Below, one piece after another: positions 33,001 through 36,000 of a stretch of DNA of 64,000 nucleotides. This stretch comes from Candidatus Aenigmatarchaeota archaeon (lineage in GTDB: Archaea > Aenigmatarchaeota > Aenigmatarchaeia > QMZP01 > QMZT01): NCBI GenBank assembly GCA_963726265.1, contig CAVSBQ010000002.1, forward strand, positions 384,001 to 448,000. The letters run 5' to 3'. Numbering within the stretch: position 1 is the stretch's first letter; every line of letters starts with the position of its first letter. Position numbers: made by a program.

Positions 33001-36000
33001 GTGAGATGTTCAAGATAACTTTGGGGGATGCGGATCTGCTTAAGAATTCAATACCGATAATTGCGGAGATTATAGACGAAGGAGTATTCAAGGTGGACGC
33101 GAAAGGGTTATCGCTCATCTCGCCGGACAGGAGCATGATAGCGCTTGTCGATTTCCAACTCCTGTCGACCGCATTCGAGGATTTCAAGGTGACGGGCGAG
33201 AACATGCTCGGCCTCAACCTAGAGAACCTCGTCGCCGTCATAAAGAGGATAAAGACGGGGGAAAAGGTCGTTCTTACGAAGGAAGACGGCTCGAACATCC
33301 TTGAAGTCGTCATGAAGGGCAAGGGAACGAGGAAGTTCGAAATCCCGCTGCTGAACATCTCGACGGAGAAGCCGCCTCTGGACCAGCTCAAGTTCAAGGG
33401 CAAGATAGAAGTCGACGCCAGAGTGCTTGAAGAGGGCATAACGGACGCGGACATAGTCGACGACTCCATCGTGTTCGAAAGCGAGCCGCATTTCTTCAAG
33501 ATATGGGCCAAGGGCGACATGAACTCGTCCCAGCTCGAGCTGAAGAAAGGCGAGGAAGGCCTCGATAAGATCGAGGTCCACGAGCCCATGAGGTCGCGCT
33601 ACCCGCTTGAATACCTGAAGAAAATGATGAAGGCCTCGAAGTTCTCGGACAAGGTCCTTCTGGAATTCTCGAACGACTATCCGCTGAAGCTGATCTTCAA
33701 GGACATCGACAAGATACATCTTTCATTTGTCCTTGCGCCGCGCGTCGAGGAGTAGTTTACGCGGCTCCGGCTCTAGTGAATAATAGAAGTTATAAAAAGC
33801 ATTGCCAGGCCTATTATCACAAGGATTATGCCAAGCCAGAACACGATCGGCGCCGTGAAGAACGCGATCGCGAGGTAAGCGCCCAGGACCAGGAAGATGA
33901 AGCCGAGAATCGCGGTCGCCCAGAGCGGCATCAGGCCTTTTTGGCCCAGACTTTTGTCCATGTTTATCTTTTGAGCGCGAACCAATAAAAATACCAGAAA
34001 CATAGATAATTTATGGATTTTGCGCGCGTGCTCAAGACAGGTGCAGCCGCCGGCGCCATCTACGGCGTCCTGCAGGGCATAGTTGCCGTCCTGTCTTTCG
34101 TTTTCTACAGGGAGCAGATAATAGAGGTGATGAGGGCAGCGATACCATCTGGCGTCAACATAGGCATGACCATGGACCAGCTCGCAAACATCAGCATGAT
34201 GACTGCGATACCGGGCTCGGTTATAGGCGGCATAATATCGGGCATAATCGTGAGCTTCATTTTTTCGCTGATGTACGGGGAGCTCATGGGGAAGGATTCG
34301 AGAAGGAAGGGCATTTTCCTGTGCATCCTCCTGACGATAGGCGTAGTGCTCGGCGAACTCGCATACCCCGGAGGCTTCGTGGGCAGCATACTGCTCATCC
34401 AGACAGGATATCTCATGCTCGCCCCGCTCAGCATCGCATTCTTCTTATGCCTCGGCTACCTCACGGGCATTTTCTACGACAGGTTCGAAGACAGCAAACA
34501 TAGGAAAAAGGCAGCGGAATGCAAGCCGGACGAGGAAAAGGAAAAGTCCCACAAGAAAAAATAAACCGGCAATGTAATAAAAAAATCAATTTATAAACAC
34601 TCCTCTTTATAAAATATAACACAGCGGGGTGGAGAAATAATGACACTGAATAAAATATTTTTAGAAAATTTAACGGAAACTGAAAAGGGATATATTATCG
34701 GTTTGTTTATTGGAGATGGCTATTCTTATTATGATAAAAAACATAGACATTATACAATTGAATTTTATTTGAATTCAGAACGCAACAAGAAAATACAAAA
34801 ACAATTAATTTTCTTATTGGAAAAAATTGGATTGAAGTGTTTTGTTTTAAAGGACAAGAGGTTTAATTGCAATAGAATAAGAGTTTATTCAAAACATCTA
34901 GTTAACTTTTTGAATTCATCTGTGATAAGAAATTGTAAAATCGATTTCGGTATTGGTTATGTATCAGGTATTATAGATTCTGAAGGCTATGTAAATCATG
35001 AAAAAAGTTTTGTTAATGTAGTTAGCACAAACAAAGACGTATTGAAAAATTGCAAGAATATTTTGAAAAAATTTAAAATTGAAGCTAAAATTAGAAATAG
35101 AAAAAAATCTAGCAAAGATAAAAAGAAATCTTATATATTACACATATCATACAAGATTAAAGATATAAAGTTAAATTCGATTAAGATGAACAGCGGGGCA
35201 ATGCTTAGCGGGGATTGTCTTTGAGACAACCGCAATGGAGCAGCCTGGAGTGCTCGCTGGGCCCATAACCCAGAGGTCGATGGTTCAAATCCATCCCCCG
35301 CTATAATATTTTATAATATTCCATCAGGTGGTCGTCTGAAGTGGCTGTTGCTTCTGATCGCAGGCATTATTCTTGTTTCCGGGTGCGTTCAGACGCAGCA
35401 GGCTTCGCAGGATATTTCCGAGCAGGCGAAAGAGAAATGCATCGGGATATGCATGACTATCAGCTCCGACCTTTCGGGCAGAAGCCCATGCCTTTCCGAC
35501 AACAATTCCGAATGGAACATAAGCGGCTGGGTCTGCGACGTCGCGCATTCGCCGAGGCAGGCGATGGATGACCTGCCAGAGAACCAGTGCAGCGAATTCC
35601 GCGAGGGGAAGGCGAGCCATTTCGTCGAAGTCGATGCGGCCTGCGAATTCATACGCGCCGTATGAGGCGCTTCTGGATTCTAGAGATTCTTGGCGTATTC
35701 GAGCGCGAGCTGGAAGTAGAGCTTCGCCGTGTTCCTCGCCTCGTCCTTCTCGTAGTCGAAGACGTGCGGGTCGCTTAGCCTGAAGCCGACGACTTTGCCC
35801 CTCACATACGCCCTGTAGCACCTGTAGAAGTCGAGCAGTTTCGTCACCTCGCTGTCGCCGCTCTCCTGCATGTATTTTTTCACGAAATAGTCCGAGAAGA
35901 ATTTCCTGTGGCGGAAGTCGAGGTCCATCGAGAGGAACGCGACGTCATTCGCTACGTCAGAGCAGGCGAAGCGCTCGTTGAACTCTATCGCGTCGAAGAT

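Follow-up and report, generated by a model that had tools for sequence, protein, structure and literature searches.

The best described counterparts of the system reported here are the I-DmoI-type enzymes of archaeal rRNA introns of the bulge-helix-bulge (BHB) kind. They are monomeric endonucleases with two motifs, of the same size as the protein predicted at our locus and likewise tied to a BHB intron, the host again being an archaeon. They differ in that their host gene is an rRNA gene, whereas here it is a tRNA gene and the open reading frame (ORF) lies upstream of the intron in the tRNA leader, not between the BHB splice sites; the sequence identity is also only about 22%. A homing endonuclease is tied to an initiator tRNA gene in Synechocystis as well, where I-Ssp6803I, a PD-(D/E)XK enzyme, is found inside a self-splicing group I intron in the anticodon loop of tRNA-fMet, but that host is bacterial.

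As described in PMC6083498, F-CphI of cyanophage S-PM2 (Zeng, Bonocora and Shub 2009) is free-standing and lies beside an ORF-less group I intron in psbA. In this collaborative homing the ORF-less intron of the neighbouring gene would keep the enzyme from cutting its own allele, and the intron in turn owes its mobility to the enzyme; it is by analogy with this that we propose the same here. Our locus differs in its protein-spliced BHB intron, tRNA gene, LAGLIDADG enzyme and archaeal host, with cleavage and immunity being predicted only, and in that the endonuclease gene sits inside the transcription unit of its target, the 5′ end of which is duplicated. The tRNA-Thr(GGU) locus of Caldiarchaeum subterraneum consists of a 5′ tRNA fragment, mobile DNA and a complete tRNA with an additional intron, an arrangement that Sugahara et al (2012) propose as a route of intron gain (PMC3293823). 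There the insert is 1.8 kb long with a predicted recombinase and stands for a single locus in one population, whereas here a predicted homing endonuclease family is fixed on the initiator tRNA gene (tRNAiMet) across DPANN. Randau and Soll (2008), as cited in PMC4090602, suggested that tRNA introns protect tRNA genes from integrating elements; here too an intron would shield a conserved tRNA gene sequence against a mobile element, though this shield would move together with the very element it wards off, and only alleles already in possession of it would be protected.

The locus touches on the question of how archaeal BHB introns enter tRNA genes and why they are so abundant in some lineages. 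In the literature searched, which covered few subscription journals, no archaeal tRNA gene was described as containing or adjoining a homing endonuclease. To our knowledge, a concrete mobility mechanism for archaeal protein-spliced tRNA introns has long been missing.

The stretch of DNA that was analysed, referred to as the window, is 64,000 nt long. Coordinates are positions in the window and all of the parts listed lie on the + strand.

34590..34597, + strand: TATA-like box TTTATAAA of the original tRNA promoter, its centre 29.5 nt before the stub (direct reading)
34623..34634, + strand: stub AGCGGGGTGGAG, identical to the first 12 nt of the initiator tRNA, upstream of the insert (direct reading)
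34631-34634, + strand: GGAG at the end of the stub, 5 nt before the ATG of the ORF (direct reading)
34640..35224, + strand: predicted gene for a free-standing, monomeric two-domain LAGLIDADG homing endonuclease of 194 aa (Pfam, motifs, fold)
35162..35170, + strand: TATA-like element GATATAAAG in the 3′ end of the ORF, speculatively an internal tRNA promoter (direct reading)
35192..35198, + strand: third AGCGGGG, a further copy of tRNA nt 1-7 that belongs to the leader and lies within the ORF (MFE fold, locus comparison)
35207..35213, + strand: tRNAiMet exon 1 (nt 1-7, AGCGGGG), supplied by the insert (spliced alignment, BHB geometry)
35214..35235, + strand: 22-nt BHB intron at tRNA position 7/8 (BHB geometry, homologous introns)
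35236..35303, + strand: tRNAiMet exon 2 (nt 8-75, anticodon CAT, discriminator A; ARAGORN, Rfam)

Between the stub and the ATG at 34640 there is only AAATA by direct reading. The complete initiator tRNA including its intron spans 35207-35303 and begins 18 nt before the end of the ORF, which runs across exon 1 and 11 nt into the 22-nt intron. A preliminary description had placed an endonuclease gene between the promoter and the body of the tRNA gene, and had a 194-aa ORF running into the start of a complete tRNAiMet with a 22-nt BHB intron at 7/8; both statements hold when the sequence is read directly. The 12-mer that it reported upstream is also present, though at 34623-34634 and not, one base off, at 34624-34635. 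It would seem probable that we are looking at a selfish, free-standing I-DmoI-like gene in the only tRNAiMet unit, one that has captured the promoter of that unit and whose target is blocked by the intron, as in collaborative homing. The endonuclease gene indeed lies outside the intron but beside the gene that bears it.

No other initiator tRNA was found in the genome, which is in four contigs and 88% complete. ARAGORN and Rfam (32.2 bits) see the tRNA-Met body only from nt 8 on, as is expected because of the intron at 7/8. Removal of the intron gives a 75-nt product with a cloverleaf, and the mature tRNA is identical to the uninterrupted gene of G002, a genome of the same genus (equal alignment score of 143). 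The central helix has 4/4 pairs (GCGG/CCGC) with 3-nt bulges (GG|A and AA|T) and the inner helix is 7 bp long; an outer helix (TGCTT with GAGCA) is possible only past an A/G mismatch and is absent from the MFE fold. The central helix covaries, as had been noted before, being GCGG/CCGC here and ACGG/CCGT in G078, and homologous 7/8 introns with compensating inner helices are present in G078, G035, G044, G032, G052, G071, G046 and G099. Among the 31 first introns tested, the central pairs are 4/4 in 25 and 3/4 in 5. The 22-nt element has the central helix and bulges of a genuine BHB intron, and its splicing is predicted. ARAGORN calls made in intron mode were mostly implausible and were left out of the analysis. 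A group I intron at the locus was ruled out by an Rfam scan of 34000-36000, which at E values up to 1 returned tRNA only and no group I core.

The machinery for processing such a transcript is present in the genome. The EndA protein (398 aa) aligns along its whole length with 4fz2 (E 2e-108), which we take to be the epsilon2-type splicing endonuclease of ARMAN-2, and an enzyme of this type would remove the 22-nt intron. RNase P RNA is found at full length (81.2 bits, E 3e-23), just under the Rfam cut-off of 84 bits, which counts against co-transcription; RNase P would remove the leader of the tRNA. 4fz2 is cited twice by a paper on the epsilon2 ARMAN-2 enzyme and its broad specificity (PMC3488258).

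The promoter flank is homologous to that of the empty sites in G004, G001 and G002, and the spacing of its TATA box matches that of other tRNA genes of this genome. The 12-mer of the stub occurs elsewhere only in the spliced tRNA itself. Equivalent stubs are found in G078, G003, G018 and many DPANN loci, and a TATA-like 8-mer is centred 22-32 nt before the first base of the stub in 15 of 19 instances. In L112, L113, L115, L121 and L122 the stub has been turned into a start codon and reads ATGCGGGG, about 26 nt behind a TATA box; the second stubs of G003 and G018 read likewise. No stub within 2 mismatches was found upstream of the gene in G035, G044, G096, G032, G052 or G071, and stubs are missing from both members of a second ORF family; these cases speak against a universal stub, as does the place of the gene downstream of the tRNA in L130 and L135. 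The TATA-box spacing and the stubs turned into start codons support a capture of the tRNA promoter by the putative endonuclease gene. The promoter and tRNA nt 1-12 would act as promoter and short 5′ UTR of the endonuclease mRNA, with the GGAG of the stub, 5 nt before the ATG, as the ribosome-binding site, and in some loci the mRNA made from the captured promoter is apparently leaderless.

The tRNA precursor would start either at the captured promoter, by read-through of the ORF, or at the TATA-like element in the end of the ORF, and an essential tRNA would need to be matured from behind a protein-coding leader. A division into two transcription units, in which the captured promoter serves the endonuclease mRNA only and the tRNA is made from an internal promoter with a start near 35192, is a rather unlikely alternative. 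The element at 35162-35170 stands about 26 nt before the third copy of nt 1-7, and each of the eight orthologous loci compared has a TTTAAAT or TTTATAA element 38-55 nt ahead of its tRNA. The ORF has T5 tracts, e.g. near 34658 and 34909, which could stop archaeal RNA polymerase and so favour a promoter separate for the tRNA; it would also be safer for a tRNA that is essential and single-copy to have a promoter of its own. The third copy, moreover, is read in two different frames across loci and is conserved at the nucleotide level in both. However, TATA-like words are common by chance in DNA of 25% GC, and in the orthologues these elements also encode a conserved stretch of the protein (SFKFIK / KDIK). 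A promoter for the tRNA within the last part of the ORF is speculative.

The product of the ORF has two stretches matching Pfam LAGLIDADG_3 (E 3e-16), in keeping with the two LAGLIDADG domains first ascribed to it. Both LAGLIDADG motifs are present and each ends in the catalytic acidic residue. Across 8 sequences there is no or almost no variation in the motifs GDGY (G25-D26-G27-Y28) and SG.ID..GY (S109-G110..D113..G116), and across 25 the same holds for the key catalytic residues of the ORF family. The AlphaFold model of the 194-aa protein (pLDDT 87, pTM 0.85) has a secondary structure that fits the tandem alpha-beta-beta-alpha-beta-beta-alpha LAGLIDADG fold. Its best PDB match is I-DmoI (E 1e-10, TM 0.66-0.74), chains of which take all of the top 34 ranks in Foldseek, and I-DmoI is the best match by sequence too (E 0.014, full length, about 22% identity). 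The best reading of the protein is a predicted monomeric LAGLIDADG homing endonuclease of the I-DmoI type. The base composition of the ORF is foreign, with a GC content of about 25% as against about 53% in the flanks.

Close orthologues were found in 7 of the 100 other relatives searched, together with one decayed copy in G032. The former (G078, G035, G044, G018, G003, G089 and G096) are 42-56% identical to our sequence, and in all of these but G089, as well as in G032, the ORF ends at or just before a same-strand tRNAiMet; the contig of G089 ends inside the ORF, which places its tRNA outside the comparison. The patchy presence given in the preliminary description is upheld, as is the proximity to the initiator tRNA in 6 of the 7 close orthologues and the decayed copy. 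Related loci span Aenigmatarchaeota, Woesearchaeota, Pacearchaeota and Nanoarchaeota. Of the 26 loci for which downstream DNA is available, 25 have the ORF followed within about 0-60 nt by a same-strand tRNAiMet whose intron falls at nt 4-16, and the recurrence of the arrangement in 26 loci excludes chance. In L131 the gene is present, there is no 5′ intron and the 5′ part of the tRNA has diverged instead; in L130 and L135 the gene is downstream of the tRNA, the copy in L135 being decayed. The tRNAiMet-linked putative endonuclease is a widespread DPANN family, in which 25 tRNA-linked genes form one clade (100/100) apart from their relatives, among them L009, inside a 16S rRNA gene. In the tree G000 groups with G078 and G035 and not with G003, which is of the same genus (support 82/89). 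From these comparisons the distribution is typical of a homing element. The conserved place beside tRNAiMet in several DPANN phyla might also be expected of a domesticated host protein, such as a helper in tRNA processing or a regulator. We regard this as very unlikely, given the patchy presence (7 close orthologues in 100 other relatives), the empty sites within the genus, the decayed copies in G032 and L135, a GC content far below that of the host, a tree placement that conflicts with host taxonomy and catalytic nuclease residues that have been kept.

Empty sites had been claimed in three genomes of the same genus, and a comparison of the flanks agrees: in G001 and G002 the same promoter flank directly abuts an uninterrupted 5′ part of the tRNA, in G004 it is followed by a tRNA with a 14/15 intron, and the ORF is absent from all three. 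Contigs from four metagenomic DNA runs were used solely for two joints, each seen in one contig with short sides (28 and 25 nt). Contig X2 joins 34629 to 35236, skipping 606 nt with 5 nt of ambiguity, and in contig X1 position 34634 is followed by 33 nt of a 14/15-type intron and then by 35243. Judged by the empty site, which the same-genus genomes and both metagenome contigs display, the insert is 606 bp long; any placement from tRNA position 7/8 to 12/13 fits. These data support insertion of the putative endonuclease cassette after tRNA nt 12, with the junction ambiguous from 7/8 to 12/13. The earlier claim that the cassette split the gene at nt 12 and brought a replacement 5′ end is in this way backed by the empty alleles, save that the exact junction may lie anywhere in that interval. 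The gene is optional at one fixed site, which is empty in close relatives. The 3′ end of the insert carries a fresh nt 1-7 and the 22-nt BHB intron, and a complete, spliceable tRNA gene would result.

The preliminary description had allowed for removal of the insert as one large BHB intron from the distal 5′ exon. On this view the whole 606-nt insert would be one ORF-bearing BHB intron at 7/8, comparable to the I-DmoI rRNA intron, with the distal AGCGGGG (34623-34629) as the true 5′ exon and the proximal copy as part of the intron. A placement of the insert in which its 3′ end coincides with the BHB 3′ splice site is indeed possible, pairing of the distal GCGG with that CCGC is conceivable, and relatives of the enzyme sit in rRNA genes (L009, 16S), the closest structure, I-DmoI, being intron-encoded. 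The distal copy, however, has neither an inner nor an outer helix, whereas the proximal one has 4/4 central pairs and a 7-bp inner helix, and the only BHB that is well formed has its 5′ splice site 567 nt downstream of the ORF start. In related loci such splicing is impossible: five loci, as well as the second stubs of G003 and G018, have ATGCGGGG for a distal copy, which cannot therefore be tRNA nt 1-7; where the intron is at 13-16 and the stub ends at nt 12 (G003, G018, G096, L112, L114 and L116), splicing from the stub would delete tRNA bases; and in L130 and L135 the gene is downstream of the tRNA. We reject this explanation, which seems to us exceedingly improbable. Least likely of all is that an integrase- or transposase-driven element with the LAGLIDADG gene as cargo produced the 12-nt direct repeat, be it by target-site duplication or at an attachment site, a form resembling the Caldiarchaeum tRNA-Thr locus of Sugahara et al (2012; PMC3293823), since the endonuclease is the sole ORF of the 606-bp insert, which holds no integrase or transposase gene, the second copy of the repeat is interrupted by the intron, and the same gene family recurs at the same tRNA in 26 loci.

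Returning to collaborative homing, the endonuclease goes together with an intron close to where it is inserted. Among the loci of 74 relatives, the first intron is at nt 16 or earlier in all 10 alleles that bear the endonuclease as against 16 of the 64 that are free of it (Fisher p = 7e-6, kinship ignored), alongside the 25 of 26 loci described above. The position of the intron does not strictly track the endonuclease tree, 10/11 and 15/16 being mixed in one clade. There is thus an identifiable, predicted endonuclease family physically tied to the 5′-proximal introns of one essential tRNA in several DPANN phyla. In the rebuilt gene the intron most likely interrupts the recognition site of the enzyme, of roughly 20 bp, so that the host allele would be immune while intron-less alleles would be cut and converted. 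This would give an I-DmoI-like enzyme a new and highly conserved natural target, and with the cassette the intron, too, would reach new genomes.

Of the 64 gene-free alleles, however, 16 have introns at nt 4-16 as well, and L131, which bears the gene, has no 5′ intron; both observations speak against immunity conferred by the intron, as do the loose fit of intron position to the endonuclease tree and the failure of tblastn to find endonuclease remains beside G031, G046 and G099.

More tentatively, the endonuclease cassette may be the vehicle that moves BHB introns into tRNA genes by homing, its later loss leaving the intron behind. We consider this possible but somewhat doubtful. The cassette would bring its own tRNA 5′ end, with the intron already in place, and its loss by recombination between the repeated 5′ ends would produce endonuclease-free 7/8 alleles like those of G046 and G099. 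A tblastn search of all the loci compared, with both ORF families, found no endonuclease remains beside the endonuclease-free 7/8-intron alleles of G031, G046 and G099. If true, this would provide archaeal protein-spliced tRNA introns with a concrete mobility mechanism. As empty, filled and decayed sites are all available, the question is testable.

In the MFE fold the acceptor 3′ strand is paired with the third AGCGGGG copy. In cassettes with introns at nt 4-10 this copy might hold that strand while the real 5′ end is engaged in the BHB. The copy is present in 11 of the 26 related loci, all of them with a first intron at 4/5, 7/8 or 10/11.

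The preliminary description placed a 194-codon LAGLIDADG ORF between a 12-nt copy of the start of the initiator tRNA and a complete initiator tRNA with a 22-nt intron at 7/8 (between tRNA nucleotides 7 and 8), and direct reading of window positions 34300-35600 bears this out. The 12-mer is present as described, though its coordinates had been set one base too high.

Features of the locus (window positions, forward strand)
34590-34597: TATA-like box, TTTATAAA
34623-34634: 12-mer AGCGGGGTGGAG, the stub (distal copy of the tRNA start), separated from the ATG by AAATA
34640 (ATG) to 35222-35224 (TGA): endonuclease ORF, 194 codons
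35192-35198: third AGCGGGG, a copy of tRNA nucleotides 1-7, whose partner in the MFE fold is the acceptor 3′ strand
35207-35303: initiator tRNA, with AGCGGGG from 35207, a 22-nt insert at 35214-35235 and the remainder to 35303

The ORF has a GC content of about 25%, compared with about 53% in both flanks. Both ARAGORN and Rfam detect the tRNA from nucleotide 8 onward only, which fits an intron at 7/8. A single copy of its anticodon arm and 3′ half exists in the genome (1.13 Mb, 4 contigs, 88% complete), so no other initiator tRNA was found.

Empty sites had been claimed within the genus, and comparison of the flanks agrees: in two same-genus genomes (G001 and G002) the homologous promoter flank abuts an uninterrupted tRNA 5′ part, and in a third (G004) the same flank is followed by a tRNA with a 14/15 intron, the ORF being absent from all three. 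Two metagenome DNA sets each gave a single contig across the site, from a relative and not from the strain of the window. One (X2, short side 28 nt) joins 34629 to 35236, skipping 606 nt with 5 nt assignable to either side; the other (X1, short side 25 nt) connects 34634 with 35243 through 33 other letters, which read as CAA plus an intron of the type in same-genus G003 and G004. Because of the empty sites and these contigs, the insert is put at 606 bp, placeable anywhere from tRNA 7/8 to 12/13.

The ORF product matches LAGLIDADG_3 (E 3e-16, two stretches), and the motifs GDGY and SG.ID..GY are kept in 8 orthologues, then in 25. An AlphaFold model (pLDDT 87, pTM 0.85) has chains of I-DmoI as its top structural matches (E 1e-10, TM 0.66-0.74, ~22% identity), and I-DmoI is also the closest PDB match by sequence (E 0.014).

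Of the 101 relatives searched, seven (G078, G035, G044, G018, G003, G089 and G096) have a close orthologue, at 42-56% identity, and G032 has a decayed copy. A scan with one genome per species gave 29 loci, whose titles name Aenigmatarchaeota, Woesearchaeota, Pacearchaeota, Nanoarchaeota/Nanoarchaeia and one Thermoplasmatales. Those contigs among them that are labelled as bacteria (L112, 'Patescibacteria group bacterium', and L130, 'bacterium') carry an archaeal-type initiator tRNA, BHB (bulge-helix-bulge) introns and this endonuclease, and are probably mis-binned archaeal DNA. Of the 29, 28 were scored, leaving out a contig-end fragment (L136). Downstream DNA is absent from L126, and in L130 and L135 the endonuclease, decayed in L135, lies ~30 nt downstream of a tRNAiMet bearing a 15/16 intron (in L130, tRNA 1364-1467, ORF from about 1500). 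In the remaining 25 and in the window, tRNAiMet follows the ORF on the same strand after ~0-60 nt.

The 25 tRNA-linked proteins form one clade (support 100/100) apart from two outgroup relatives, one of which sits in a 16S rRNA gene. In L009 (G025:C12) a relative with 30% identity is embedded in a 16S rRNA gene, presumably as part of an rRNA intron. Within the tree the window's protein groups with those of G078 and G035 (82/89) rather than with that of same-genus G003, which pairs with G018. Our literature search turned up no account of a homing endonuclease within or next to an archaeal tRNA gene; Nawrocki et al (2018; PMC6125680) place archaeal group I introns in rRNA genes only.

A second ORF family of ~300 aa, found only in G052 (L083:126-1016) and G071 (L090:60-977) of the 101 relatives, also lies directly upstream of a tRNAiMet with a 7/8 BHB intron. 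Its two members are 50% identical, one has a weak LAGLIDADG_3 match (E 8e-6), and they look unrelated to the first family, with no BLAST match to it. Each has a TATA-like box ~25 nt ahead of the ATG.

In most loci a 10-12 nt copy of the tRNA start is found just before or at the start of the ORF. In L112, L113, L115, L121, L122 and the second stubs of G003 and G018 this stub is ATGCGGGG and provides the start codon; the window's stub also has these codons (RGGEI) in frame, with the ATG five codons later. A TATA-like 8-mer (at least 7/8 matches to a consensus) is centred 22-32 nt ahead of the first base of the stub in 15/19 instances, a spacing resembling that before other tRNA genes of the window's genome. 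Compared across loci, the start codons within stubs and this spacing give good support to the inference that the endonuclease mRNA would now begin at what was the tRNA promoter, and would be leaderless in some loci. No stub was found upstream of the ORF in G035, G044, G096, G032 or the second family. G035 (L003) and G044 (L104) have a conserved element ~55 nt upstream of the ORF, at the expected place of the stub (CGGAATAGCGGAATGGTCCTATGG in G035, similar in G044). In G003 (L006) and G018 (L005) there are two tandem stubs, the native AGCGGGGTGGAG being followed by a 35-nt AT-rich spacer containing its own TTTAAATA and then by ATGCGG(G/A)GTGGAGAAATA, which opens the ORF, an arrangement suggestive of a promoter-plus-start module that has been duplicated.

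The tRNA itself may be transcribed by read-through of the ORF or from a promoter of its own. Both T5 tracts within the ORF and a TATA-like word at 35162-35170 speak for a second start near 35192, but such words come easily in AT-rich DNA and this one overlaps a conserved stretch of the protein. The third AGCGGGG begins at the same place. Such a copy is present in 11/26 loci, in two different reading frames, comprising 11/18 with a first intron at nucleotide 10 or before and 0/8 of the others (hypergeometric 0.004, computed by hand and ignoring kinship). Its role could be that of a stand-in acceptor strand or of a start site, or it could be left over from an older tRNA start.

The preliminary description also offered removal of the whole insert as one giant BHB intron, which we reject: the distal copy has no flanking helices and in several loci has ceased to be tRNA sequence (ATGCGGGG), a stub of 12 nt could not make up the exon where introns lie at 13-16, and in two loci the gene is behind the tRNA. 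An Rfam scan found no group I core at the locus.

The 22-nt element has BHB geometry, with a central helix GCGG/CCGC, bulges GG|A and AA|T and an inner helix of 7 bp. Of 31 first introns, 25 have 4/4 central pairs, five have 3/4 and one (G031) failed, and the inner helices vary in sequence with pairing kept. The initiator tRNAs of 74 relatives have introns at many non-canonical positions. In these loci, from which four with weak or partial tRNA matches (G007, G049, G064, G088) are absent, a first intron at nucleotide 16 or before is found in 10/10 endonuclease-bearing alleles (8 of the first family, 2 of the second) and 16/64 gene-less alleles (Fisher p = 7e-6, kinship ignored). Over all loci a 5′ intron accompanies the gene in 25/26; in the exception, L131, the tRNA 5′ part has diverged instead. 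The positions, 4/5, 7/8, 10/11, 12/13 and 13-16, are all within ~9 bp of the insertion point, and thus in the stretch of DNA that an enzyme of the LAGLIDADG family would be expected to touch. The simplest reading of these sequences is that the rebuilt tRNA 5′ end would restore the target of the enzyme and the intron would break it; the cassette would then spread the intron too. Such a partnership is called collaborative homing where a phage endonuclease is paired with a group I intron (PMC6083498). A Caldiarchaeum locus has a comparable layout of 5′ fragment, mobile DNA and tRNA with an extra intron, and intron gain by this route was proposed for it (PMC3293823).

The host is a DPANN archaeon, and in its genome ARAGORN detects no more than 14 tRNAs free of introns. 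Its 398-aa splicing endonuclease (G000:C2:198780-199976; L137:853-2049) matches over its full length PDB 4fz2 (E 2e-108), which we take to be the structure of the ARMAN-2 epsilon2 splicing endonuclease, and by this likeness is of the three-unit epsilon2 type. PMC3488258, which cites 4fz2 twice, describes the three-unit epsilon2 enzyme of ARMAN-2 as cutting BHB motifs of both strict and relaxed form. The genome also has an archaeal RNase P RNA, matched over the full model length (E 3e-23) at 81.2 bits, just under the 84-bit cut-off. With these two components, the machinery needed for splicing of the small intron and for trimming of a long 5′ leader is present in the genome. Spliced alignment also opened gaps of 693 nt at tRNA 61/62 in G092 (L072) and of 255 nt at 58/59 in G054 (L056), each either an alignment artefact or a T-arm intron of great length.
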